Notes: generated from the sequence alone by a model not told the origin. 64,000 nucleotides of DNA from Thermodesulfobacteriota bacterium (GCA_030017685.1 JASEHH010000008.1:685-64684); one strand, 5' to 3'. Positions 3,458-21,220 are shown, counted from the stretch's first letter. Program-made: numbers and translations.

Positions 3458-5473
3458 ATGGGACTCCTTCAGAAACAGTATGAATCTTTAAGAAAGAAGA
3501 TCAAAAAATCCGAACTGGAGAATCAGAGGCGGGCCTTCAGGGAGACCCGGACCCGCCAGAAGCAGAATCTCCATCTCTTCGACGATTTTGAAAAGGTGAA
3601 GGAAGAGGTGAAACGGATTCGCTCTCAATCCCTGGAAAACCTGGATCTCCTTGAGGAGGCGATCACCCATCTCGAGAAGAACCAATTTAAGGTCTTTCGA
3701 GCGAAAGATTGTGAAGAGGCCCACGCCATCTTCCTGAAAGAGATCGGAGAGGAGAGGCTCGTTGTCAAATCGAAATCCAACCTCTCCAAAGAGATCGGGC
3801 TTACCCCCTTTCTCACCGGACACGGGATCGAGGTCATTGAGACCGATATCGGCGACCGAATCATTCAGCTTGCAGGTGGACGGCCCTCCCATTATACCGG
3901 GCCGATTGTCCACCTCTCCCGGTATGAAGTGGCGGAAATCCTCTCTGGACATTTGAAGAGGAAGGTTCCTCCTGTTCCGGAAGAGGAGATGCAGGCAGTC
4001 AGGGAGGATATCGAATCTTATCTCCAGAGGGCAAAGGTGGGGATCACGGGCACCAATGCGATCGCCGCAAGAGAAGGGGCAATCCTGATCATTCACAATG
4101 AAGGAAATGTGACAAGGGTTCGGACGAGATCGAAGCATCTCATCATCACCTCCATCGATAAGGTCTATCCGGATATGAACGATGCCATCCGCATGGCAAA
4201 GCTTGAGACCTATCTGGCCACAGGTTCTATCTTCCCTTCTTTCATCGACATCATCGGAGGAAGGTCCAAATCTTCGGATGTGGAGAAGATCCCTTTTTAC
4301 GGAATGCATGAGCCGAATGAACTGGTGATCATCCTCCTCGATCATGGAAGGAGCGGGATTCTAAAGGAGGCGGAAGACTTCTCCGACCTCCTCTACTGCA
4401 TCGGATGCGGCAACTGCCTTCTCGATTGCCCCACCTATAATGCCATCGGCCCCTCCTTCGGGACAGATGGCATGTTAGGCGGAAGGGGAGTGGCCCTCTC
4501 CTCACTGATCCATGGCATGAGAGAAGGGGTTGAGGATGGCCTCTTTCTCTGCACCACCTGCGGTCTCTGCGGAGAGGTCTGTCCGGTCGGGATCGATGCG
4601 GGAAAGAGGCTCAAGGACCTGAGGCGATTGAGTTTAAGGAGTCCAGAGGTCTCCTCTGAACTCGATGAAGTGACTCAGCTTCAATCCACGATCGATCGGT
4701 TCGGAACGCCCTATGGCGAGATGGAACGGACCTCATTTCCGTCCCTCAAGAAGAAAGGTCCTGTCGTCCTATATATCGGCTGTGTGGGATTGACGACAGA
4801 GGTGGAATCTGCAGTGAGAATGATTGAACTTCTACAGCGATTGGGCGTCGATTTCACAGTGATCGATGAGGTCTGCTGTGAGGCTGTGAAGGGGGATACG
4901 GGATCGAGCCCCAATTCGGAGCGAATCAAACAAAACATTGAGAGAATAAAAGAAGCCGGCGGCCGCGAGGTTCTCTTCCTCTGCCCCACCTGTCTTAAGA
5001 CTTTCTTAGAATATGACGAAAAACATCCCACCGGAATCACCTTTGAAACACTGCTTTCCTATCTTCGGAAACATTTTTCCTTTATCTCATCGGAGGAAAA
5101 TCCAGCCACGATCACCTATCACGATCCCTGCCACCTCGGAAGAGGGCTTGGCTCCTTTGATGGAGCGAGAGAACTGTTAAAAGGCATTGGGGCCAAGTTC
5201 GTTGAGATGGAGCATCATCACCGGGAATCGCTCTGCTGCGGAGCCGGAGGAGGGGTGAAAGGGTTTTACCCGAAATTCTCAAGAGACATTGCGCGAAGAA
5301 GGGTGAAAGAGGCAGAGGAGGTAAAGGCAGAAACCTTGCTGACTGACTGTCTCTCCTGCAGACATAACCTGAGACAGGGTGTGCCGTTTGACGGGAAGAT
5401 GAGAGTGATGACGACTCCGGAATATCTTCTGGAGAGAATCGAGGCTGAAAAAGTTAAGTCCTCACGAAAATAG
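3458..5473 (+). CDS. LUD (LutB/LldF-like) domain + 2x[4Fe-4S] + two CCG domains oxidoreductase
   Basis: VVKSKS, ETDIGDRIIQL, PSH, GITGTN, NEGN; CIGCGNC..C and CTTCGLC..VCP; YHDPCHLGR and CCGAGGG. RBS AGGAG precedes ATG 3458. Confidence 0.85.
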   Translation: MGLLQKQYESLRKKIKKSELENQRRAFRETRTRQKQNLHLFDDFEKVKEEVKRIRSQSLENLDLLEEAITHLEKNQFKVFRAKDCEEAHAIFLKEIGEERLVVKSKSNLSKEIGLTPFLTGHGIEVIETDIGDRIIQLAGGRPSHYTGPIVHLSRYEVAEILSGHLKRKVPPVPEEEMQAVREDIESYLQRAKVGITGTNAIAAREGAILIIHNEGNVTRVRTRSKHLIITSIDKVYPDMNDAIRMAKLETYLATGSIFPSFIDIIGGRSKSSDVEKIPFYGMHEPNELVIILLDHGRSGILKEAEDFSDLLYCIGCGNCLLDCPTYNAIGPSFGTDGMLGGRGVALSSLIHGMREGVEDGLFLCTTCGLCGEVCPVGIDAGKRLKDLRRLSLRSPEVSSELDEVTQLQSTIDRFGTPYGEMERTSFPSLKKKGPVVLYIGCVGLTTEVESAVRMIELLQRLGVDFTVIDEVCCEAVKGDTGSSPNSERIKQNIERIKEAGGREVLFLCPTCLKTFLEYDEKHPTGITFETLLSYLRKHFSFISSEENPATITYHDPCHLGRGLGSFDGARELLKGIGAKFVEMEHHHRESLCCGAGGGVKGFYPKFSRDIARRRVKEAEEVKAETLLTDCLSCRHNLRQGVPFDGKMRVMTTPEYLLERIEAEKVKSSRK

Positions 5474-6726: not shown

Positions 6727-7411
6727 AGATTTAAAAGCGAAGGTAAAAAGGCTCGCCCTCCTTCTGGAAAAAGGATACGGCGCCCCTCAGAGGGAGAGGG
6801 GAGCTAACCCTCTCGATGTCCTCATCCAGACCATTCTCTCCCAGAATACGAATGACCTTAACCGGGATCGAGCCTATCAAAGGTTAAAAAGCCGGTTTCC
6901 CCTCTGGGAAGATGTCCTCAACGCAAAGACAGAAGAGGTCATTTCAGCCATCCGGCCCGGCGGCCTTGCCGGACAGAAGACCGGACGCATCCGGGAGATC
7001 CTCCGCTGGATTAAGAAGAGGGAAAAAAGATTGAGCCTCTCCTTTCTGAAGGGGATGGATTCGGAGGAGATCAAGAAGTTGATCGGAGGACTAAAGGGGA
7101 TCGGTCCCAAAACAGTCCATTGCCTCCTTCTATTCGGCCTGGAAAGGGATGCCTTCCCGGTGGATACCCATATCCTCAGAATCGGAAAGCGTCTTGGTTT
7201 CATTCCGGAGAGGATGGAGGCAGTCAAAGCCCATCCCTGGATGGTTCCGCTCATTCCCAAAGGGAAATCCCTATCGCTTCACCTCAACCTCATACGGTTT
7301 GGAAGGGAAATCTGCAAAGCGAAAAACCCGAAATGTTGTAATTGTTTTCTTAATAAGGAATGCCTCTATTCCAGTCATTGGGTGACCGTGTCCGTGCCTC
7401 GTGCCCGTTAA
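6692..7411 (+). CDS. nth: Endonuclease III-like HhH-GPD DNA glycosylase
   Basis: LIQTILSQNT, LKGIGPKT, FPVDTHI, C-terminal CKAKNPKCCNCFLNKEC [4Fe-4S] motif; start codon uncertain. Confidence 0.8.
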   Translation: MRRSEGPWQRHKDLKAKVKRLALLLEKGYGAPQRERGANPLDVLIQTILSQNTNDLNRDRAYQRLKSRFPLWEDVLNAKTEEVISAIRPGGLAGQKTGRIREILRWIKKREKRLSLSFLKGMDSEEIKKLIGGLKGIGPKTVHCLLLFGLERDAFPVDTHILRIGKRLGFIPERMEAVKAHPWMVPLIPKGKSLSLHLNLIRFGREICKAKNPKCCNCFLNKECLYSSHWVTVSVPRAR

Positions 7412-7901
7412 AGAATATTCAAATGGCTTGTATAAAGGGGCTCATCACGAAACTTCTTCATATCACATCGAAGGTACTCCTGAACGGACGGCCCTGGCCT
7501 ATTCCATCGGCATCTTCTTAGGATTCTCACCTTTTTTAGGCTTTCACGCCCTGGGAGGCATAGCCATCGCTTTTCTATTCAATCTCAATCGTGTGGCTGT
7601 GCTTGCAGGGGTTTGGACCAATACCCCCTGGTGGATTGTTCCTTATTACATGATTGCCACCTGGCTTGGGATGTGGGTGGTTGGGTTTAAAATCAATAGC
7701 ACAACCCTTCAGGAGATATTCCAGTTAGGAATGAATCAGGGATTCATCAGTTCGGATTTCTGGAATCGGATTACCTCCCAATGGGGCCTGCTGCTCTCTT
7801 TTACAGTCGGCTCTCTCATTTTATCCATTCTTCTCGGATTGGTTGCCTATCCCCTTTCCCTGAAATGGATCCGGTTCTATCGGTCAAAAAAGGGAAAGTA
7901 G
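7401..7901 (+). CDS. DUF2062-like membrane protein; probable 5' frameshift (native start likely 7423)
   Basis: TPERTALAYSIGIFLGFSP..G.H and NTPW motifs; three hydrophobic segments. Confidence 0.7.
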   Translation: MPVKEYSNGLYKGAHHETSSYHIEGTPERTALAYSIGIFLGFSPFLGFHALGGIAIAFLFNLNRVAVLAGVWTNTPWWIVPYYMIATWLGMWVVGFKINSTTLQEIFQLGMNQGFISSDFWNRITSQWGLLLSFTVGSLILSILLGLVAYPLSLKWIRFYRSKKGK

Positions 7902-7924: not shown

Positions 7925-10852
7925 TTACGATGGTTTAAGACCTTCCTTTCTTTTAATTTCCTCAGGTAACAATTCGTCAGAGCGAGTAATCATTTTCACA
8001 ATATCAGCCACTATCTCTCTTTCTTCAACCTGAAGACTATAGTATCTCTGGATATCCTTACTATAAATGATCTCTATTGCCATAATGATTGGTTTCAAGA
8101 GTTCTCGATAATCGTCTCCTTTTAGTGTTATAATTTCATTCACTGCAGCCTTGATGAGCGAAATTTCTCCGGTGCTCGCTGTCTTCTTTAGGAATGTCAT
8201 TGTTAATTCAGCAATATTGTTAGCTTTCAGTTTATAGCTTTTACTATAGGCACTCTCGATCAATTTTCCTGCGTTTCCGCGATTACCAACTTTCAGTTCA
8301 TTGATCGCAATACTAAAACTGATATCTATAAGGTTTACAAGGGCATATTCATAATCTGGGTCAATTTTTATTGCTTTTTCAAGGGCTTGCAGTGCCTCCT
8401 CGTATCTGCTGAGATTTTCTAATGTTAATCCCTTATTTGTGAGCGCCCATTTATCATTTGGGTCGATTTCTAGTGCCTTATTAAAGACTTCCAATGCCTC
8501 CTCATACCTGCCTAATTTTGCCAAAGTAGATCCCTTGTGTGAAATGGTTTCTTCATTTTTAGAATTAATTTCCAATGCTTTATCAAAAATTTTTAAAGCA
8601 TCCTCATGCCGATGTAGCCCGCAACTTAAAACATGACCCTTTTGTGTAAGTAAGTCTATATCATTTGGGTTATTTTCTAAAGCACGGTTAAAAGTATCTA
8701 ATGCTTCCACGGATTTTCCCAAAAATACTAATGCGATACCCTTATAATACAATGTATAGTCGCAATTCGGTTCAATTTCTAGAGCCTTGTTGAAAGCCTC
8801 CAATCCTTCATCTTCTCTATTGAGATTAAATAACGCCAATCCTTTATTTGCTAAAGCACGATGGTCCTTTGGATCGATTTTAATAGATTCATTTAAAATT
8901 TCCAGTGCCTCTTCAAACCTGTCAATGTTTAATAAAACCTCTCCCTTATTAGCCAATGTATAGCTATCATTTGGATCGATTTCGAGAGCCTTATTGAAAG
9001 CTTCCAATGCCTCCTCATATCGGTTGAGGTTAACTAATGCAAAGCCTTTTCTTGATAAGGCATAAGCATCCATTGGATCGATTTTGAGAGCCTTATTGAA
9101 GGCTTCCAATGCATTCTCATATCGGTTGAGAGTTAACAACAAGGATCCTTTATTTTCTAGTGTAATGCCATCCGTTGGATCGATTTTGAGAGCCTTATTG
9201 AAAGCTTCCAATGCCTCCTCATATCGGTTAAGAATAAATAATGCAATGCCTTTTCCTGATAAGGCATAAGCATCCGTTGGATCGATTTCGAGAGCCTTAT
9301 TGAAGGCTTCCAATGCCTCATCATATCGATCAAGACTTTCTAACGCGTCACCTTTCCCTTTGAGAGCAAGTTCGTTTTTGGGATTAATTCCTAGAACCTT
9401 GTCGAAGGCTTCCAGTGCATTTTCATATCTTTCTTTAGAAAGAAGTAGGGATCCCTCATACAAGGTTATAATATTTTTTAATTTATCATTTTTAGTATCA
9501 GTTGCAGTTTCCTTAAGTTTCTGAATTTCATATTCAGCCTCATCCCACTCGCCAAGGGCTAGCAGTTTGGATGTAACTTTCAGTAGAGCATCTGGCTTAA
9601 ATTTAAGTGGTAAAGTTTCAGCATAGTAGCATATGTCTCTGATTGCAGTTCTTTCCCCAGCTTCAAGAAGTTCAAATTTTGCTTTAAAAAGTTCTCTCCG
9701 TTCGTCCGGGGTATACCAAAGTTGTAAGAACTCCATAAGAATCGAAACCCTTTTTCGGCCAAAAGGCTGCCTCATCTCCCTCCATAGCCGAAAGAGCCTT
9801 TCCCTCACTTCGTAATAGGTCCGTCTCCCAGTAGGCCTTGAGATAATATATCCATCCTTCTCCAATCTCCTAAGCTGCGTTGTTACAGTGGGGAGGTCGA
9901 TTCTGGCTTTATTTGAGATTTGTTTGGGAGTAATAGGTGCCCCAGCTGAGATGAGTATATCGAAAATTCTTCTTCGCTGCGTTGGTAAAATCTGAAATAT
10001 CTCTTGATAATAAGGGGTATGCTCATCAATTATTTTCAAAAAAGCTTTCTCTATATTCTCAAGTTCTCCTTTTGTGATCATCTCATAAAACAGTATAACA
10101 AGCCTTGGACTGCCACCTGTGAGATGAGCCATGCCGTGAATCCTCGGCTCATATTTTTTGAATTCTTCAATGAATTTATTATTTCCCTCTACTTCTGCAA
10201 TTTTTTGGATTAACTCCATTATCTCAGGAAGTGAAAACTCTCTAAGGTGTTGAACATCGAAAAAATTAAAAAAGGGTTCCTCATGGTCGGATATAGCTGG
10301 GAAAATCATTGGTGCGGTAGCTATAATAGAAAAGAAATTATGTTCTTGAAAGATGGACCTCAATTTTTGTAATTCCTCTGTATCTAGCTGTCTGAATAGT
10401 TCATGCAGGTTTTCAACAAAGATGACATACCCTTTCTTATCTCTTTTTGATATCTGTTTAAGCTTTTCTAATGCGGCATCAAGGATTTCATCTTCTTCCT
10501 TGGAAGAAAGAATATCTGAGGTCATTTCTGATTTCTCTTCTAATATTCTCAGTAAAAGGTCAGATGCACGGAAAACAGAATATTCTTCTTCGGCGAGTTT
10601 GATTGGGATCAGCAGGGAACCCAATTTATTCTGGATTTCAAAGTATAGCAAGACTAAGAAATGTGATTTCCCAATTCCCCTTGGTCCTACAATTAAATAG
10701 AATCTTGGAGTCTTTTTTCTTGCTGCATTTTCAATTTCCTTAAAGAGACTTTCGAGAAGCTTTTGTCTACCTACGAAAAGCTTCTCCAGGGTGGTTTTAT
10801 CCATGTTTTCTGGTGAAAATCTGTAAAAAATGATGTTACTCGATGTCGCCAT
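7925..10852 (-). CDS. STAND-like P-loop ATPase + winged helix + 11 TPR repeats
   Basis: LFVGR, Walker A GPRGIGKS, Walker B VIFVENL, LTGGSPR, wHTH (ITPKQIS..PTVTTQLRRLEKDGYI), then 11 TPRs of about 34 aa; AT-rich. Confidence 0.85.
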   Translation of the reverse strand: MATSSNIIFYRFSPENMDKTTLEKLFVGRQKLLESLFKEIENAARKKTPRFYLIVGPRGIGKSHFLVLLYFEIQNKLGSLLIPIKLAEEEYSVFRASDLLLRILEEKSEMTSDILSSKEEDEILDAALEKLKQISKRDKKGYVIFVENLHELFRQLDTEELQKLRSIFQEHNFFSIIATAPMIFPAISDHEEPFFNFFDVQHLREFSLPEIMELIQKIAEVEGNNKFIEEFKKYEPRIHGMAHLTGGSPRLVILFYEMITKGELENIEKAFLKIIDEHTPYYQEIFQILPTQRRRIFDILISAGAPITPKQISNKARIDLPTVTTQLRRLEKDGYIISRPTGRRTYYEVRERLFRLWREMRQPFGRKRVSILMEFLQLWYTPDERRELFKAKFELLEAGERTAIRDICYYAETLPLKFKPDALLKVTSKLLALGEWDEAEYEIQKLKETATDTKNDKLKNIITLYEGSLLLSKERYENALEAFDKVLGINPKNELALKGKGDALESLDRYDEALEAFNKALEIDPTDAYALSGKGIALFILNRYEEALEAFNKALKIDPTDGITLENKGSLLLTLNRYENALEAFNKALKIDPMDAYALSRKGFALVNLNRYEEALEAFNKALEIDPNDSYTLANKGEVLLNIDRFEEALEILNESIKIDPKDHRALANKGLALFNLNREDEGLEAFNKALEIEPNCDYTLYYKGIALVFLGKSVEALDTFNRALENNPNDIDLLTQKGHVLSCGLHRHEDALKIFDKALEINSKNEETISHKGSTLAKLGRYEEALEVFNKALEIDPNDKWALTNKGLTLENLSRYEEALQALEKAIKIDPDYEYALVNLIDISFSIAINELKVGNRGNAGKLIESAYSKSYKLKANNIAELTMTFLKKTASTGEISLIKAAVNEIITLKGDDYRELLKPIIMAIEIIYSKDIQRYYSLQVEEREIVADIVKMITRSDELLPEEIKRKEGLKPS
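8973..9330. repeat. 102-bp tandem DNA repeats encoding TPR units
   Basis: GGATCGATTTYGAGAGCCTTATTGAARGCTTCCAATGC recurs at 8973, 9075, 9177 and 9279. Confidence 0.9.
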
Positions 10853-12052
10853 AATATATCCTCCACCAGTCTCTGAGCATCTTCGAGTAAAATTTAAGCC
10901 CCCTTTTGGGGTCGTGTTCTATGTAAAAGTCATGGCTCAGGTCCGCTATTAAATCCATAAATTTCTCATAATCATCTTGGCCTGTTTCTTGTTTGAAAAT
11001 ACCAAAGGCAATATCAACCGGGAAGTATTCTTGGTTGCATACTTTCCTTAATATAGCTTTAGCGGCTTTTTCTTCCAATCCTGCCATTCCTGTATAGAAA
11101 ATTTTAAGTCTCTGGAAATAGTGCTCAAAATAATGTTTCCCTTCGTTACCAAGTATGCAAAAATTATAAACGGTTTCAATTAATTTCTCGTTAATTTCCT
11201 TACCCTTCAAAATTTTTTCTTCCTTTATTGCACTTAGCATCACGGCGATAAAATATGGTATGCAATCCTCTCCGATACAGTCCAATATTTTTTCTCCGAA
11301 AGGAATCTTGTACTTCCACCCTTCTTCCTTAAAAACTTTCTCAATAAGAGATAACGCTATCTCTGTCTGAAATCCACCTATTCTAAATCTCTTAAAATCG
11401 TTTATGGTGGTAACCCCGCCGACATCCCTTACAACACGATCTATGCTTACCGATCCTCCGGCAATAAACCTCAGGTTCCTGTTCAATTGCCTCAACTTCC
11501 TGAACCAATGCAAAAACTTCTCTGTTTTAGTCTTATCTGCTTTGCTCATATTCTTAATAGCAACCGGAAATTCATCGATGACGATATAGACTTCTGATGT
11601 TTCCTTTCCGATTATCTCAAAAATTTGTCTGGATCTTTCCATCCAATCTTTTTTTAAATCTTCCTCTATGTTTCTTCTCAACTTTACTTTGAACTCGGAT
11701 ATTCCAATTTCTTCTATATTTTCTCTGATATTTTCTTTGATCCATTTAGTGCCTTTTCTTAAAGCATGAAAAAGTTTGGTCTTCTTTCTGATTCTTTCAT
11801 TTTCAATCAGAGCCATAATAATCTCAGTGAGGAAGCGTTGAGGGGAGTAAACGTCTTCCACTTCGAGGAAAACACTTGTTTTATCCTTGCCCAACAGCTC
11901 TTTTTCCACCCCTCGCATGATAGAGGTCTTTCCAAACCTACGTGGTGCGATTAAAAGAACACTATCCTTGTCAACCATTGAAATTATTTGAGAAATTCAT
12001 ATTCACGGTCAAAAAAATCATCTCCAACTGCTGGGCTGCCTACTGGTATCAT
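10836..12052 (-). pseudogene. P-loop ATPase (archaeal-ATPase/STAND-like); one frameshift near 11995 (real or assembly error)
   Basis: RBS AAGGAGA, then ATG 12052 MIPVGSPAVGDDFFDREYE, stop soon after; a -1 shift continues ISQIISMVDKDSVLLIAPRRFGKTS (Walker A)...IVIDEFP (Walker B). Track ORF 10836..11978 is the downstream part. Confidence 0.75.
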
Positions 12053-12068
12053 GGTTGTCTCCTTACAG

Positions 12069-12119
12069 TTTTGTTATATAACTATTTTGTTATATAATCA
12101 ATCTGTTTTAAAATGTCAA
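12069..12119 (-). promoter_or_regulatory. Sigma70-like promoter with tandem operator-like repeat, upstream of the ATPase pair
   Basis: Minus strand TTGACA-17 nt-TATATA; TTTTGTTATATAA at 12069-12081 and 12085-12097. Confidence 0.55.
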
Positions 12120-12273: not shown

Positions 12274-15200
12274 ATGGCAGATTGGATAAAGGAAAAACCC
12301 CCTTCTATTTCAGTATGGTTTGACTCAGAACCCTGGAAGAAGTGGAAGCGGATCGGTCTGACCGGATTGAAGGGATCCTCCAGGGCCTATCTCTTATCCC
12401 GGTGGAAAGAGAAGGTGAGAGGTCCTATTCTGGTCATTACGCCTCACCTCCGTGACGCCGAATTCCTCCTCGAAGACTTCCGCTTTTTTCAGAGGGAAGG
12501 CAGCGGGATCGCCTGTCTCTTTCCTCAGTGGGAGACACTTCCCTATGATGAGATCCCTCCCCATCCGGAGAGCATCCGGGAGAGGGTAAATTGCCTCTTC
12601 ACGCTCATGAGGGATGAAGGTCCGGTTATCTTCTCCTCGGTAAAAGCCCTGATGCAAAGGGTTCTCCTCTCTTCGGACTTAAGGAGATTGACCTATACCC
12701 TTACGAAGGGAGAAGAGGTTGAACGGGACCGCCTCGTCCATTTTCTTCATGAAGGCGGATATGCTTCCGCAAGGATCGTTGAAAAGAGGAGTGATTTCAG
12801 CCTTCGGGGAGCGATCATCGATATCTTTAGCCCGCTTTATGAGGAACCCCTCCGGCTCGAATTCGATGGAGACCGGCTGGAATCGATCCGGAGGTTTGAT
12901 GTTGAAAGCCAGCGGTCGATCAGAGGGGCTGAGATGGAGAAGGCCACTCTTCTGCCTGTCAGAGATATTTCAAGAGATCCCTCTGCTCAGACCATGGCCA
13001 CCCTCTTTGACTACCTTAAGAAAGGGGGATGGGTTTTTATCGTTGAAGGGGAAGAGGTGGAGAGGGAGGCAGAGGCCTTCTCCCATATGGCCGAAGCCCA
13101 TTATGAGAAGGTCCGGGTTAAGAAAGGCTCTGTTCCTCTGCCCGATTCGCTTTACCTCCGTTCTGAGGATCTCCTCAACGTTCTCGGAAGATTTCAAACG
13201 GTCTTTCTCCAGGAAGGCCCTGTTGCTCCTCCCCGATGTGAGCGCATTTATCCATTGGATGTGGAGAGCAACGAAGATCTTCAGAGGGAGATCAAATCGA
13301 TCTTTCAAACAGAAGAGCGTTCGACCGAAGGTTCACCCTTGTCCATTCTCCTGAAACACCTTCGCCACTGGCAGAGAGAGGGAAAGGGCGTCTTCATCGT
13401 CTCCCATACCACGGGCCAGGCTGAAAGGATGAGGGACCTTCTTTCCCACTACGAGATCGCCTCCCGCCTTGAACGGGGGAAGAGGTTCGGTGAGGTGATA
13501 GAAGAAAGAGGAATGATCACACTCCTCATCGGGCTGCTCTCCTCCGGGTTTCGAGCCTTTGAAGAGGGCTGGGTTCTCTTGACAGAAGAGGAGATCTTCG
13601 GAGAGAGAAGAAGGCTCAAGGAGGAGAAACCGGGGAAACGTCTGCCGAAAGGGGAAGGCGCTCCTCTTTCCTCCTATGGCGAACTCCGTGAGAACGATTT
13701 TATCGTCCACACAGACTATGGCATCGGCCTCTACAGGGGGCTGAGACACCTGAAGATCGGGACCGTTTCAAACGACTACCTCCTCCTGGAGTATCTCGAT
13801 GCGGATAAGCTCTATGTTCCTGTGGACCGGCTCAATCTCATTCAGCGTTTCATCGGAGGCGACGGAAACCATCCCCGGCTCGATAAATTGGGGGGTCGCT
13901 CCTGGCAGAGGGCGAAGAAGAGGGCGAAGGACGCCATCTCGGAGATGGTCAAAGAGATTCTCGACCTCTATGCCGCGAGAGAGGCTTTCAAGGGAATGAC
14001 CTTTGCTCCGGTTGATCAATTCTACAGGGAGTTTGAAGCGACCTTTCAATACGAGGAGACACCCGATCAGATCAGGGCCATCGAAGAGGTGATGAACGAT
14101 ATGGGAAACCCGAGGCCCATGGACCGGTTGGTCTGCGGGGATGTGGGATTTGGAAAGACCGAAGTCGCCCTCCGGGCGGCCTACCGCGCCGTGATGGATG
14201 GAAGACAGGTTGCGTTCCTGGTTCCCACCACTGTTCTGGCCCAGCAGCACCACCAGACCTTTTGTGACCGGTTCAAGAATTATCCGGTCGTCATCGAGAT
14301 GTTGAGCCGGTTTAAAAGCCCCCGGGATCAGAAGAAGATCCTTCAGCGGCTGAGAGACGGGAAGGTGGACATCATCATCGGGACGCACCGGCTCCTCCAG
14401 AAGGATGTCTCCTTTCATGATCTGGGTCTGGTGGTCGTCGATGAGGAGCACCGATTCGGCGTGAGCCACAAAGAGAAACTGAAACAGATGAGGAAAATGG
14501 TCGATGTGATCACCCTGACGGCCACACCCATCCCGAGAACGCTCCAGCTGGCCGTCTCCGGGATCCGTGATCTCAGCCTCATTCAGACCCCTCCTGAAAA
14601 CCGCCTTTCGATCCGCACCTTCGTGACCCGCTATGAGGATGAGATCGTCCGGGAGGCGGTTCTGAGAGAGCTTGCCCGCGGAGGACAGGTCTTCTTTGTC
14701 CACCATCGCGTCCAGAATATCTATTCGATGGCCGCACATCTCAGAAAGCTTGTTCCCGAGGCGCGGCTGGCCATTGCCCATGGTCAGATGAAGGAGAGGG
14801 AACTGGAGGAGGTGATGCTCCAGTTTGTGAGGGGAGAACATAACCTTCTGGTCTGCACGAGCATCATCGAGTCCGGCCTGGACATCCCGGCGGCCAATAC
14901 GATCCTGATCAACCATGCCGAGCGCTTCGGCCTTGCGGATCTCTACCAGCTACGGGGACGGGTGGGACGGGGAAGGCATCAGGCCTATGCCTATCTTCTC
15001 ATCCCCTCAGACCTCTCCCTTTCGAGGGATGCGGCAAAAAGGTTCCGGGCGATTCAGGAGTTGAGTGAATTAGGATCCGGATTCAAACTGGCCCTCCAGG
15101 ATATGGAGATCAGGGGGGCGGGAAATCTTCTCGGCCGTTCCCAATCCGGACATATTTCCGCCGTGGGGCTCGAATATTACACCCAGTTGATGGAGAAGGC

Positions 15201-15672
15201 GGTCAGAGAGTTGAGGGGAGAGGAAGTGATCGAAGAGATCACACCGGAGATTCATTTCCATCTTCCCGCCTTCATTCCCGAGAAGTATGTGGAGGACCCG
15301 GAAGAACGGCTGCGCCTCTATCGGAGGCTTTCACATTCCCGCTCGGATGAAGCGGTGGAGATGATCCGGGGAGAACTGGCGGATCGCTTCGGTAAGATTC
15401 CGGAGGAAGCGGGCCATCTCTTTGAAGTGATCAAGGTGAAGATCCTCCTGACGAAGCTTTCCATCCGGAAGTTCGACGAGACCCCCTCGCAAATGGTTTT
15501 GACCTTCGATGAAACGACACGGATCTCTCCTCAGAGAGTGGTCGAATGGGTCCAGCAGGGAGAGGGGAGATATCGACTCACCCCTGACTCCAGGTTGGTC
15601 GTTGAAGGGTGGCCGGGGATGAAGAAGAACCCCTTTGAGGCGGCGAGAAAGCTATTGCAAGCACTGGCCTGA
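12274..15672 (+). CDS. mfd: Transcription-repair coupling factor
   Basis: UvrB-like N-terminus, RID (VHTDYGIG), CGDVGFGKTEVA, DEEHRFGV, TATPIPRTL, QLRGRVGR, TRG region. Confidence 0.97.
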   Translation: MADWIKEKPPSISVWFDSEPWKKWKRIGLTGLKGSSRAYLLSRWKEKVRGPILVITPHLRDAEFLLEDFRFFQREGSGIACLFPQWETLPYDEIPPHPESIRERVNCLFTLMRDEGPVIFSSVKALMQRVLLSSDLRRLTYTLTKGEEVERDRLVHFLHEGGYASARIVEKRSDFSLRGAIIDIFSPLYEEPLRLEFDGDRLESIRRFDVESQRSIRGAEMEKATLLPVRDISRDPSAQTMATLFDYLKKGGWVFIVEGEEVEREAEAFSHMAEAHYEKVRVKKGSVPLPDSLYLRSEDLLNVLGRFQTVFLQEGPVAPPRCERIYPLDVESNEDLQREIKSIFQTEERSTEGSPLSILLKHLRHWQREGKGVFIVSHTTGQAERMRDLLSHYEIASRLERGKRFGEVIEERGMITLLIGLLSSGFRAFEEGWVLLTEEEIFGERRRLKEEKPGKRLPKGEGAPLSSYGELRENDFIVHTDYGIGLYRGLRHLKIGTVSNDYLLLEYLDADKLYVPVDRLNLIQRFIGGDGNHPRLDKLGGRSWQRAKKRAKDAISEMVKEILDLYAAREAFKGMTFAPVDQFYREFEATFQYEETPDQIRAIEEVMNDMGNPRPMDRLVCGDVGFGKTEVALRAAYRAVMDGRQVAFLVPTTVLAQQHHQTFCDRFKNYPVVIEMLSRFKSPRDQKKILQRLRDGKVDIIIGTHRLLQKDVSFHDLGLVVVDEEHRFGVSHKEKLKQMRKMVDVITLTATPIPRTLQLAVSGIRDLSLIQTPPENRLSIRTFVTRYEDEIVREAVLRELARGGQVFFVHHRVQNIYSMAAHLRKLVPEARLAIAHGQMKERELEEVMLQFVRGEHNLLVCTSIIESGLDIPAANTILINHAERFGLADLYQLRGRVGRGRHQAYAYLLIPSDLSLSRDAAKRFRAIQELSELGSGFKLALQDMEIRGAGNLLGRSQSGHISAVGLEYYTQLMEKAVRELRGEEVIEEITPEIHFHLPAFIPEKYVEDPEERLRLYRRLSHSRSDEAVEMIRGELADRFGKIPEEAGHLFEVIKVKILLTKLSIRKFDETPSQMVLTFDETTRISPQRVVEWVQQGEGRYRLTPDSRLVVEGWPGMKKNPFEAARKLLQALA

Positions 15673-18760: not shown

Positions 18761-19771
18761 AGAATCAACGCCCTTCCTATCATCGGCATCACCATGGGTG
18801 ATCCCACGGGTATCGGGCCTGAGATTATTGTGAAGGCCCTGTCAGCGGGAGAGCCATTTCAAGCCTGCCGGCCCATTGTCTTCGGAGATGAACAGGTTCT
18901 TCTGGAGGCGATTCGAAGAGAAGGCCTCCCTGGTCGGATAAAAGTCATTGATGAAATTCCTGAAGAGGGATATCAACCCGGGGAAATCTTTCTCTTCCCC
19001 TCAAGCCGATTGGAGGCCAACTCCCTCTCTTTCGGAAAGCCCGACCGGAAGTGCGGCGAAGCCATGGTGAGATATGTCCAAGAGGCAGTGAGGTGGCTGA
19101 AAAGAGCAAAGATCGATGCCATTACCACCTGCCCCATCAATAAACAGGCGATGAACAAAGCCGGCCATCCTTTTTCGGGCCATACCGAGCTCTTAGCCCA
19201 CTTAACTCAAGTCTCTTCTGTGGCGATGATGTTCTTAGGATCGAAGTGGAAGGTGGTTCTGGTCACGACCCATCTTCCCCTCAAAGAGGTGTCGAAATGG
19301 ATTACCCGTGGTCGCATCCTCACTACCATCCGCCTAACCGGGGAGGGCTTGAGAAGATACTTCGGAGTTTCTCAACCCCGGTTGGCTATACTTGGCCTTA
19401 ATCCCCATTGCGGAGAGGAAGGGCTTTTAGGAGAGGAAGAGAAGGACGAGATTATCCCGGCCATTGAGGAGGCGAAAACCCTGGAAATGAAAGTTCAGGG
19501 ACCCTTTCCTGCCGATTCCTTTTTTGACATTTCAAGCCTCCGTAACTTCGATGCTGTGATTGCCATGTATCACGACCAGGGCCTTATTCCCATAAAGATC
19601 TTCGATTTTAGAGAGTCGGTCAATTTCACTCTCGGCTTGCCATTTGTCCGGACCTCTGTTGGACATGGAACCGGTTATGATATTGCGGGGAAGGGATTGG
19701 CTGATCCGGCCAATCTGATCAAAGCTGTTGTCACTGCCGCCAACCTATTAAAATTTAAAAGAGAATTTTAA
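18719..19771 (+). CDS. pdxA: 4-hydroxythreonine-4-phosphate dehydrogenase
   Basis: ITMGDPTGIGPEI, GHTE, LVTTH, GLNPHCGE, GPFPADS, MYHDQG, RTSVGHGT; start codon uncertain. Confidence 0.93.
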   Translation: MTNDHPISPSPHPPRINALPIIGITMGDPTGIGPEIIVKALSAGEPFQACRPIVFGDEQVLLEAIRREGLPGRIKVIDEIPEEGYQPGEIFLFPSSRLEANSLSFGKPDRKCGEAMVRYVQEAVRWLKRAKIDAITTCPINKQAMNKAGHPFSGHTELLAHLTQVSSVAMMFLGSKWKVVLVTTHLPLKEVSKWITRGRILTTIRLTGEGLRRYFGVSQPRLAILGLNPHCGEEGLLGEEEKDEIIPAIEEAKTLEMKVQGPFPADSFFDISSLRNFDAVIAMYHDQGLIPIKIFDFRESVNFTLGLPFVRTSVGHGTGYDIAGKGLADPANLIKAVVTAANLLKFKREF

Positions 19772-19936
19772 TGTCCTGATTTTAGAAAAAATTGTTGACA
19801 AAAGAAAGGATTTGGGCTAAAAACCATACTTGTGAAAAAAATCTTTTGAATTAATCCGGGTCAGGAAACCCGAATCTATACCCTACGGAAACGAACAAAT
19901 CTTCTGACTTACGTTTATTATTAAAAGGAGAATCAT

Positions 19937-21220
19937 ATGAAGGAAGTTGTTGTTGTGAGCGGTGCGAGGACTGCCATTGGTAATTTTGGAGGTTCTCTGA
20001 AGGATGTTCAGGTGGTGAAACTGGGCGCCACTGTCATCAGAGAGGCCTTAAGGAAAGCAGGCCTTAAACCCATCCCGAAGAAGGAATATTCGGAGATTGG
20101 CCCTGATCTACTAAAAGGAGCGGGTATGACCGACCTGGAGAAGACTCATTACCAGTGGGATGGGTCTCTCAAAGAGGTGGAAGTCGATGAGGTTATCATG
20201 GGCAATGTGCTTCAGGCCGGACAGGGACAGAACCCGGCCCGGCAGGCCGTGATCTATGGAGGCATTCCAAAGGAGACGAATGCCTTTACGATCAATAAGG
20301 TCTGCGCTTCGGGTCTCAAGGCGGTTGCCTTAGGGACTCAGGCGATTCAGACAGGAGAAGCGGAGGTGGTCATTGCGGGCGGGATGGAGAATATGAGCCA
20401 GGTTCCCTATGCCTTTCCGCAGGGCCGCTGGGGCGCTAGAATGTTCAACCAGGAGATGGTGGACCTCATGGTCTTCGACGGCCTCTTTGAAATCTTTTAT
20501 GGATATCATATGGGGCTCACCGCTGAAAATATTGCAGAAAAGTACGGGATCTCAAGAAAAGATCAGGACGAAATCGGGCTGCTCAGTCACCAGAGGGCAA
20601 GGGCCGCCATTCAGAAGGGGATTTTAAAAGAGGAGATCATTCCCGTTATCATCCCTCAAAAAAAGGGGGAGCCGCTCATCTTTGATACGGATGAGAGGCC
20701 GATGGATACCTCGCTTGAGAAGATGGGCAAGATTCCCACGGCCTTCAAGTCAGGAGGAACGGTCACGGCCGGCAATGCCTCAGGGATCAATGATGCGGCG
20801 GCAGCGGTTCTTCTGATGTCAAAAGAGAAGGCCAAGGAGATTGGCCTGGAGCCTCTGGGAAAGATCAGAGGTTGCTCCTCCGCAGGGATCGATCCGGCCT
20901 ATATGGGCCTGGGTCCCATTCCTGCGGTGAGAAGGGTGCTTAAAAAAACCGGTCTCTCCCTTGGAGACATCGAACTGATCGAACTGAATGAAGCTTTTGC
21001 CTCCCAGGCGATCGCCTGCATCCGGGAACTGAAGTTCGATATGGAGAAGACCAATGTCAATGGAAGCGGAATCTCCCTGGGCCATCCCATCGGCTGCACA
21101 GGGGCGAGATTGATCGTCTCGCTCCTCTACGAGATGAGAAGGAGGAAGGTGAATCTCGGGCTGGCCACGCTCTGCATCGGCGGCGGCCAGGGCATGGCGA
21201 TGGTCGTGGAAAAGAGTTAA
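19937..21220 (+). CDS. Acetyl-CoA C-acyltransferase (thiolase)
   Basis: [34 protein letters not shown]. Confidence 0.95.

Follow-up and report, generated by a model that had tools for sequence, protein, structure and literature searches.

ATPases of the PF01637 type, the "archaeal ATPases", are numerous and their structures have been solved, and to our knowledge no function has been assigned to them. Here we describe a cassette of two PF01637-like ATPase genes in a 64,000-nucleotide (nt) stretch of DNA from a Thermodesulfobacteriota bacterium (GCA_030017685.1 JASEHH010000008.1:685-64684), which we call the window and from whose first letter positions are counted unless another locus is named. 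The cassette lies at 7,925 to 12,119 and consists of gene 1, encoding an AAA+ ATPase, and gene 2, encoding an ATPase with a winged helix and an array of tetratricopeptide repeats (TPRs). The best explanation of the observations collected below is a self-contained, self-regulated two-ATPase sensor that was acquired horizontally.

The structures 2qen and 2fna, which we take to be archaeal ATPases and members of PF01637, have an AAA+ domain, a lid and a winged helix. The window proteins have the same parts; unlike the PF01637 members, they stay below the Pfam cut-off. Both 2qen and 2fna come from single genes, and we know of no function, paired partner, TPR array or operator described for either. 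The Orc1/Cdc6 initiators share with the cassette the order of an AAA+ domain followed by a winged helix, and S. solfataricus Orc1-1 and Orc1-3, solved on origin DNA (2qby), further resemble it as two paralogues that go together with repeated DNA elements; a GG.PRL motif in the lid of gene 2 presumably stands at the place of the Cdc6 sensor-2 arginine. In contrast to the initiators, the pair is also bacterial, patchily distributed (gene 1 is found in 9 of 151 Methanosarcinaceae genomes) and single-copy, has no origin context and carries TPRs, and the similarity of sequence is marginal (ORC4 at an expect value, E, of 0.003 with the gene 2 profile).

MalT, AfsR/SARP and GutR, whose switching depends on a ligand and on ATP, are single proteins in which an ATPase is joined to a TPR-like sensor and to a DNA-binding domain, as is the case in gene 2. 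Its DNA-binding domain, however, is an internal MarR/ArsR-like winged helix and not a terminal LuxR or SARP domain (Pfam gives no GerE or Trans_reg_C domain in gene 2), a second ATPase gene is attached to it, and the conserved DNA target is the promoter of the pair only, with no adjacent regulated operon. Antiviral STAND and NLR proteins (Avs, bNACHT, Apaf-1-like) are like gene 2 in their core of a nucleotide-binding domain (NBD), a helical part and a winged helix, to which gene 2 adds a variable TPR sensor, and, as with them, the family of the pair is horizontally transferred and patchy. It differs from the Avs and NLR-like proteins in having no N-terminal or fused effector, in matching no Avs or NLR model of PADLOC, and in its D/E-N Walker B; the available passages of a 2026 preprint (PMC12803255) describe neither an obligatory paralogous ATPase partner nor an operator-bound winged helix for Avs proteins.

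The inactive-STAND (iSTAND) ternary systems, as presented in the passages on ternary conflict systems of Kaur et al. 2020 (PMC7159879), likewise join an active AAA+ protein to one that is STAND-like and whose catalytic site is degenerate. They are built of MoxR, vWA and the inactive STAND protein, whereas the pair has neither MoxR nor vWA and its active partner is a PF01637-like paralogue; those passages contain no description of the pair. Partition systems, finally, are unlike the cassette, whose NTPase is of the AAA+ and not of the ParA, ParM or TubZ type and which is nearly absent from plasmids. The open literature yielded no account of the obligate paralogous pair, the D/E-N Walker B, the operator array or the transfer, and the clade tables of PMC12803255 might list the family. 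The folds and the logic that links ATPase, TPRs and DNA binding are known; the obligate pair, the D/E-N sensor and the operator array, which we did not find described, are apparently new.

The paralogous ATPase pair

The two genes and the parts of the gene 2 protein are placed as follows.

10836-12052, minus strand: gene 1 in full, including its 5' fragment; frameshifted near the 5' end
10836..11978, minus strand: main frame of gene 1, 380 amino acids; AAA+ ATPase with APRRFGKTS and IVIDEF, a helical lid and a C-terminal winged-helix-like domain
7925..10852, minus strand: gene 2, 975 amino acids, from the listing of open reading frames (ORFs); GPRGIGKS and VIFVEN(L)
10836..10852, minus strand: overlap of the gene 1 end and the gene 2 start, 17 nt, from the ORF coordinates
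10028..10852, minus strand: gene 2 residues 1-275, AAA+ NBD and lid; GPRGIGKS and VIFVEN, with GGSPRL in the lid
9758..10027, minus strand: gene 2 residues 276-365, MarR/ArsR-like winged helix-turn-helix (wHTH); profile matches and PADLOC Csa3 wHTH matches
9443..9757, minus strand: gene 2 residues 366-470, helical linker; secondary structure of the model
8318..9442, minus strand: gene 2 residues 471-845, 11 TPR units; frame RYEEALEAFNKALEIDP conserved, inner positions variable
7928..8317, minus strand: gene 2 residues 846-975, helical C-terminal domain; conserved, also in TPR-less relatives

Gene 1 and gene 2 encode paralogous AAA+ proteins of the Orc1/Cdc6 / PF01637 / STAND fold. Their ATPase domains align by hhalign (A2 against A3) with a probability of 97% and E 1.8e-11, and the AAA+ and winged-helix parts of both proteins match the Orc1/Cdc6 folds 2v1u, 2qby and 1fnn. 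The two genes also stay together. A scan of one genome per species gave 79 loci with a gene 1 relative; at 71 of these, the gene immediately downstream, on the same strand, is related to the N-terminal part of gene 2. This supports the coupling of the two ATPases proposed in an earlier note on this DNA, which was made from the sequence alone. Five of the eight other loci (L034, L047, L050, L060 and L076) end at most 161 nt past gene 1, and in L067 a gene-2-like frame begins; in L071 and L079 there is space downstream but no gene 2 match, the gene 1 match being truncated in L071 and weak in L079 (24%, E 8e-5). All-against-all clustering of 860 frames from these loci gave no third gene family in more than eight of them.

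Across archaea and bacteria the two genes are kept adjacent and often overlap. The overlap of 17 bp that the earlier note had described is exact in the window, and a 17-nt overlap recurs in several close relatives, e.g. L002-L006 and L008. The pair is present in many bacterial phyla, and an exhaustive profile search placed 970 clusters at 50% identity in the gene 1 family at E <= 1e-30, and 2188 at E <= 1e-10.

Gene 1 had been read as an ATPase with the motifs APRRFGKTS and IVIDEF, and the 380-amino-acid ORF contains both. Its Walker A is kept and D135-E136 is invariant, conservation being judged for both genes over 23-26 diverse sequences. Compared with Pfam, gene 1 falls just below threshold for AAA-ATPase_like and ATPase_2 (PF01637), the truncated gene 1 of the window reaching 20.6 bits against a PF01637 gathering cut-off of 33.2; many full-length relatives carry precomputed PF01637 matches, and Pfam lists no DUF234 match for gene 1. 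The AlphaFold model built on the family alignment has a predicted local distance difference test score (pLDDT) of 86.5. Foldseek ranks 2qen (PABY2304) first, with E 4.7e-9 and a template modelling (TM) score of 0.59-0.63, followed by 2qby_B (Orc1/Cdc6), by 2fna (SSO1545) in third place and by further Orc1/Cdc6 chains; with 2qen as best match, the fold is that of the solved PF01637 members.

The description of gene 2 as an ATPase with a winged helix and 11 TPRs is equally confirmed. Pfam finds AAA_16 at residues 26-171 and 10 TPR_1 stretches, the 34-residue register gives 11 units, and the winged helix is identified by structure matches of the MarR/ArsR type. In Foldseek, the N-terminal 430 residues of the AlphaFold model (family alignment, pLDDT 87.4) match Orc1/Cdc6, 2qen, 2fna (E 2.6e-8, 20% identity), CED-4 (4m9s, E 3.6e-8), Apaf-1 (1z6t) and plant NLR resistosomes, so that the core of NBD, lid and winged helix is like that of Apaf-1, CED-4 and the plant NLRs. 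In addition, the gene 2 profile matches ClpA domain 1 around Walker B (E 1.8e-8), residues ~283-357 match the winged helices of MarR, ArsR, AspA and TFE (E 1e-5 to 1e-2), and the Csa3 wHTH models of PADLOC cover residues 283-362 and 275-369. Walker A is kept in gene 2 as well, and Walker B always reads hhhh(D/E)N, with the invariant N148 placing an Asn where AAA+ proteins have the catalytic Glu. In AAA+ proteins, loss of the second acid of Walker B should slow hydrolysis or abolish it and leave ATP binding in place.

The TPR region of gene 2, a 102-nt tandem array at the level of DNA, is fast-evolving: in P0124 and P0130 the N-terminal part is 87% and 76% identical to that of the window protein, and the TPR region 56% and 43%, and the number of TPRs among relatives varies from none to many. 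No Pfam family covers the linker (366-470) or the C-terminal domain (846-975), and an Atlas search with the latter was uninformative (scores <=0.76, TM <=0.51).

The putative promoter and its palindromic boxes

Upstream of gene 1 the following elements are found.

12114..12119, minus strand: -35-like hexamer TTGACA, read from the sequence; putative promoter element
12089..12098, no strand assigned: box 1, ATTATATAAC, 9/10 of the palindrome; contains the -10-like TATATA at 12096-12091; repeat family D9
12073..12082, no strand assigned: box 2, GTTATATAAC, perfect 10-bp palindrome, 16 nt from box 1
12059..12064, minus strand: ribosome-binding site AAGGAG, 6 nt before the ATG at 12052; read from the sequence

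TTGACA and TATATA are separated by a spacer of 17 nt, and it is plausible from this arrangement that a single promoter serves both genes. A consensus promoter scan missed the two hexamers, its rule demanding T at the last position of the second. TTGACA is also present in the closest relatives, L001 and L087, and precedes the boxes in many of the bacterial loci inspected.

Between this promoter and the ribosome-binding site of gene 1 stand tandem 10-bp palindromes, GTTRTAYAAC, with a 16-nt period. Boxes of the GTTATATAAC type are found at the inspected loci of Methanosarcinales and Methanomicrobiales, and GTTGTAYAAC at most of the inspected bacterial and Thermoplasmatota loci, a few of which, e.g. 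L055 and L058, have GTTATATAAC. When boxes with at most one mismatch to GTTRTAYAAC were counted in the 180 nt around the gene 1 start, with a period of 15-17 nt defining a chain, 73 of 75 loci had at least one box and 55 a chain of two to four; among 4406 other 180-nt segments of the same loci, taken as controls, 54 had one box and none had a chain. At the two boxless loci, L074 and L075, a small RelA_SpoT gene overlaps the gene 1 start. Upstream of this RelA_SpoT gene, L074 has a consensus promoter and, after it, variant boxes (ATTGTGCAAY) with the same period; the predicted recognition helix reads TAVIKTL or TAIINTL in these two loci and T.QL(R/K)RL elsewhere. Such a co-change of box and helix would fit a reading of the boxes by the winged helix of gene 2, although the two sequences are related and make no independent test.

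In the 3.96-Mb genome of the window, GTTATATAAC was found once and the tandem at the promoter of the pair only; in G043, G044, G211, G219 and G221, too, the palindromic tandem stands solely upstream of the pair. Since the boxes of this genome are confined to its own promoter, the cassette is probably self-regulated.

Two further arrays were observed away from the pair. In G042 (contig C36, L085, 3005-3055), three boxes (GTTATATAAC, N6, GTTATATAAC, N6, GTTATATGTT) lie upstream of mutS-mutL and divergent from a Bro-N domain gene, with the pair of this genome on another contig; they may be an extra target of the regulator. In the Methanosarcinaceae genome G093, which has no pair, at least eight tandem 16-nt units (GTTACATAACAAAACT), broken by a run of N, occupy contig C50 (L086) at ~3940-4180. 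A hydrolase gene and a MutS-like gene flank these units, in the gene order that also surrounds the pair in L012 and L042; the units could be the scar of a lost pair or an expanded operator array.

An NTPase gene, a gene for a winged-helix protein and tandem repeats upstream of both are also the three parts of DNA segregation and replication-initiation modules such as parMRC, AspA-ParBA and Orc1/ORB, in which terms gene 1 would be the NTPase, gene 2 the adaptor and the boxes centromere- or iteron-like repeats. The Orc1/Cdc6 heterodimer on origin DNA is indeed among the best folds, the winged-helix profile has a weak AspA match (E 0.005), and G093 keeps its long array without the pair. Nevertheless, such a module is highly improbable: one distant match, of 24% identity, was found in 72,556 plasmid records and none in IMG/VR viral contigs or 50,697 phage records, the loci are single chromosomal copies whose contexts vary and have no replicon or integrase genes in common, the family occurs in bacteria, which do not use Orc1, and a TPR array has no place in such a module.

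Origin of the island and state of this copy

The flanking genes and the lesion in gene 1 are located as follows.

7401..7901, plus strand: DUF2062 gene (PF09835, E 3e-25), context only
12274-15672: mfd, with TRCF, CarD_TRCF_RID and UvrB_inter domains
11984..12052, minus strand: 5' fragment of gene 1, 22 codons (MIPVGSPAVGDDFFDREYEFLK) and a stop at 11986-11984; parted from the main frame by a 1-nt frameshift
11993..11998, minus strand: frameshift site, a short A/T run; one base more in other public samples

The earlier note had placed an AT-rich island between a DUF2062 gene and mfd, and this stands in every part. Both neighbours are identified by their Pfam matches, and the content of guanine plus cytosine (GC) ranges over 0.35-0.43 in the 500-nt bins between 8001 and 12000 and over 0.45-0.59 in those on either side. 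By gene it is 0.372 for gene 1, 0.375 for gene 2, 0.512 for the endonuclease III gene and 0.549 for mfd, i.e., 37% for the pair against about 50-55% for the flanks. The island is also foreign to its lineage: gene 1, which is single-copy in this genome, was found at E <= 1e-10 in none of 40 relatives, of which 12 belong to the same genus, 12 to other genera of the family and 16 to the same class or phylum. Four genomes of the genus have endonuclease III directly beside mfd; here the two are parted by a block that includes the DUF2062 gene. A repeat search of the window gave no convincing flanking direct or inverted repeats marking a mobile element.

The DUF2062 gene shares 11 nt with the end of the endonuclease III gene and has a GC content (0.467) between the values of host and island. 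Its protein was not found in five same-genus genomes searched with the window query, and the gene may be a separate, older insertion. The composition profile shows two more AT-rich patches in the window, at 1001-2000 and 19501-20000, with a GC content of 0.40-0.41 against ~0.50.

The surroundings, with mfd and endonuclease III beside the island, a MutS-like gene downstream of the pair in L012 and L042 and the mutS-mutL boxes of G042, suggested a link to DNA repair. As a general rule it was rejected: endonuclease III abuts mfd in same-genus genomes that have no island, and the MutS-like neighbour is a matter of lineage synteny, because G093 keeps this gene without the pair.

A metagenome contig of a related bacterium, L087, whose mfd N-terminus is 63% identical to that of the window, carries an intact gene 1 of 405 amino acids, 91% identical to that of the window, which diverges from mfd and is preceded by the same promoter and boxes; the GC content is 37% in the cassette and 47% in the mfd part. 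As the cassette stands beside mfd in this second contig too, the island is no chimera of the assembly. In a quick maximum-likelihood tree of gene 1, for which the careful search is unfinished and the root is the midpoint, the window, L087 and L001 (labelled "uncultured archaeon" from a 3.3-kb contig) form a clade with support 100 inside a clade of 24 rows with support 98. The named rows of the larger clade are Methanosarcinales, Methanoperedens and archaea of the ANME (anaerobic methanotrophic) type, except L037, which is labelled Desulfobacteraceae; its sister is a Methanoculleus/Methanomicrobiales clade, and other bacteria fall into distant clades at 24-37% identity.

Thus the closest named relatives of the cassette are Methanosarcinales-type archaea, which suggests a transfer from this group to a bacterium. 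In the most economical reading of these sequences, the boxes would have been retained after the transfer and are now framed by a TTGACA -35 hexamer and an AGGAG ribosome-binding site. The exceptional L037 is a 4-kb contig binned into a Desulfobacteraceae metagenome-assembled genome; its gene 1 is identical to that of the metagenome contig L088 and nested within Methanosarcinaceae sequences in the tree, and it represents either a second archaeon-to-bacterium transfer or a binning error.

The frameshift noticed earlier is present in this assembly. The main frame of gene 1 starts one base out of register with the 22-codon fragment that begins at the ATG at 12052, and intact relatives, of 395-405 amino acids, read across the point as MIPVGSPAIGDDFFDRE.EISQIIS.VDKDS; the intact gene 1 of L087 starts MIPVGSPAIGDDFFDREYEISQIIS. 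Because the relatives read through, the window is short of one base in the A/T run near 11995. An extra T behind 11995 (plus strand) is found in record 28 of run X5, over 134 nt with no other differences, and in record 12 of run X2, over 628 nt with 34 differences (~95% identical), each being a single contig of low depth. None of the public runs searched had more than 0.30 of the sampled words, and the source sample is probably outside them; no RNA run was among those listed as containing the sequence. The frameshift is thus a peculiarity of this strain or else an error of the assembly.

Irrespective of what the family does in other genomes, the copy in this one could be a decaying, functionless remnant. 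The frameshift costs gene 1 its conserved first 22-25 residues, and the DNA is foreign and AT-rich, with the cassette not found in any of the 40 relatives searched. The lesion, however, is a single one, with no other damage in the two long frames, the boxes, the promoter or the ribosome-binding site; the 134-nt contig has the extra base and no other difference, L087 holds its intact gene beside mfd, and short A/T runs are common sites of assembly errors. We therefore regard a remnant as quite improbable.

Possible role of the cassette

For the cassette as a self-regulated two-ATPase sensor, the following mechanism may be proposed. The winged helix of gene 2, the likely reader of the boxes, would bind them and thereby repress the operon, because the boxes cover the -10 region in bacteria. 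As its Walker A is kept and an Asn replaces the catalytic Glu of Walker B, gene 2 would bind ATP and hardly hydrolyse it, thus serving as an ATP-binding switch and sensor, and gene 1, with its canonical DE Walker B, would carry out the hydrolysis in a hetero-oligomer, much as in ORC or in NLR pairs of sensor and helper. A trigger, probably a protein, would be bound by the variable TPR array and the conserved C-terminal domain and would flip the switch. The assembled ATPases themselves, or extra genes added in particular clades, would provide the output.

Tightly linked extra genes do occur in single clades, namely RelA_SpoT upstream of the pair in L074 and L075, genes for an OmpR-type regulator and a histidine kinase at the end of gene 2 in L061 and L070, and AAA_14-DUF4143 downstream in some Methanoculleus loci. 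The RelA_SpoT-domain gene (903-1631 in L074, 235-708 in L075) is the PDC-S33 match of these loci, which belong to a distant bacterial clade (Marinifilum, Desantisbacteria); gene 1 of this clade has an extra N-terminal domain of ~140 amino acids that belongs to no known family, as in P0307, P0365 and P0385.

The biological role that we would guess at, NLR-like sensing of an invader or of stress in some form of conflict, has in our estimate slightly less than an even chance, and a defence role of the pair is plausible. Hints in this direction come from the N-terminal fusions of conflict type in two of the 150 best representatives of the gene 1 family, one a full AbiEi (P0338) and the other Schlafen AlbA_2 with HATPase_c_4 (P0379), and from the PDC-S33 RelA_SpoT gene in the operon of L074 and L075. 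A word search for longer gene 1 fusions had given none, which is weak evidence, and the exhaustive profile search later gave a few.

The fullest form of this idea is an effector-less NLR-type immune or conflict sensor made from two paralogous Orc1/Cdc6-like ATPases, which has crossed from archaea to bacteria at least once. The ATP-locked sensor, with its D/E-N motif, winged helix and TPRs, would rest on its own operators until it recognised an invader protein; it would then leave the DNA, the operon would be induced, and an active complex with the hydrolysing partner would form. The source of the cassette would be methanogenic or methane-oxidising archaea. Taken as a whole, we consider this scheme rather unlikely.

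A number of observations weigh against the two-ATPase sensor with such a role in general, and the surroundings of the pair do not show the conflict role put forward in the earlier note. The 117 nearest neighbours at 30 loci are mostly housekeeping genes, e.g. those for argininosuccinate synthase, tRNA synthetases, transketolase, PEPCK and Obg. A neighbour that PADLOC marks as a defence or candidate-defence gene is present among up to four nearest genes at 7 of 31 loci, a raw count without a matched background.

L003: BrxP-like protein (PADLOC)
L015: PDC-S01 (PADLOC)
L017: type I methyltransferase (PADLOC)
L024: type II methyltransferase and MkoA-like helicase (PADLOC)
L068: two PDC-S03 proteins (PADLOC)
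L074: PDC-S05 and PDC-S33 (PADLOC)
L075: PDC-S33 (PADLOC)

This defence context is at most a mild signal, and the family was, as said above, not found in the viral and phage collections and is nearly absent from plasmids. Two negative statements of the earlier note hold and count on the same side. No effector is visible, as Pfam, NCBIfam and PADLOC give no enzymatic domain in either protein, and the pair is no named system, since a run of PADLOC 2.0.0 gave no system model for either protein and only partial matches (TPR, Csa3-wHTH and weak mad8 or AriAB). Moreover, Methanoculleus has gene 2 forms of ~550 amino acids without TPRs; the family is kept in 27 of 48 species genomes of the genus (counted by gene 1), and the persistence of the TPR-less forms implies that the repeat sensor is not essential to the core function. 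The boxes before mutS-mutL in G042 point to targets beyond the own promoter in at least one genome. DNA binding, the hetero-oligomer and the ATPase asymmetry are themselves predictions from sequence, and this frameshifted copy may be inactive, or its assembly wrong.

Several of these observations would suit a switch outside defence, of the MalT/AfsR/GutR type, in which gene 2 detects a metabolite or protein of the cell through its TPRs and C-terminal domain and, with gene 1, controls the own promoter and perhaps a few distant ones in an ATP-dependent manner. Such a signal-transduction or transcription switch is possible but doubtful. It would account for a real MarR/ArsR-type winged helix next to conserved operator-like boxes, for the mutS-mutL boxes of G042, for the mostly housekeeping neighbours, and for the fairly stable presence in Methanoculleus with partly conserved synteny. 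In the passages of PMC12803255 on STAND clades, 198 of 589 are classed as defence-associated, and the others include transcription regulators. Two-component genes also adjoin the pair in the magnetotactic-type Nitrospirota L061 (10142-12201) and L070 (10776-12826), where gene 2 shares the 4 nt at its stop with the gene for an OmpR-type response regulator, after which comes that for a HAMP histidine kinase. The same switch would, however, leave the tandem boxes with no visible regulon, as they stand at the own promoter only in six genomes (G000, G043, G044, G211, G219 and G221); neighbourhoods vary by lineage, which leaves no adjacent target operon, and a patchy spread with transfer between domains is unusual for a housekeeping regulator.

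With the self-contained, self-regulated two-ATPase sensor as the best explanation, one large PF01637-like subfamily is defined here as an obligate two-gene unit with a DNA site, GTTRTAYAAC, repeated with a 16-nt period. An opaque family thereby becomes a source of testable predictions, namely a box-binding protein, an ATP-hydrolysing partner and a ligand of the TPRs. Methanosarcina acetivorans, a genetically tractable methanogen, holds the pair (AAM03532 and AAM03533). The cassette of the window would also be a clean example of archaeon-to-bacterium transfer, in which the operator was kept and, in this clade, a bacterial-type -35 hexamer stands before it. If the cassette is an immune sensor, it would represent an NLR-like system that works without a classical effector.

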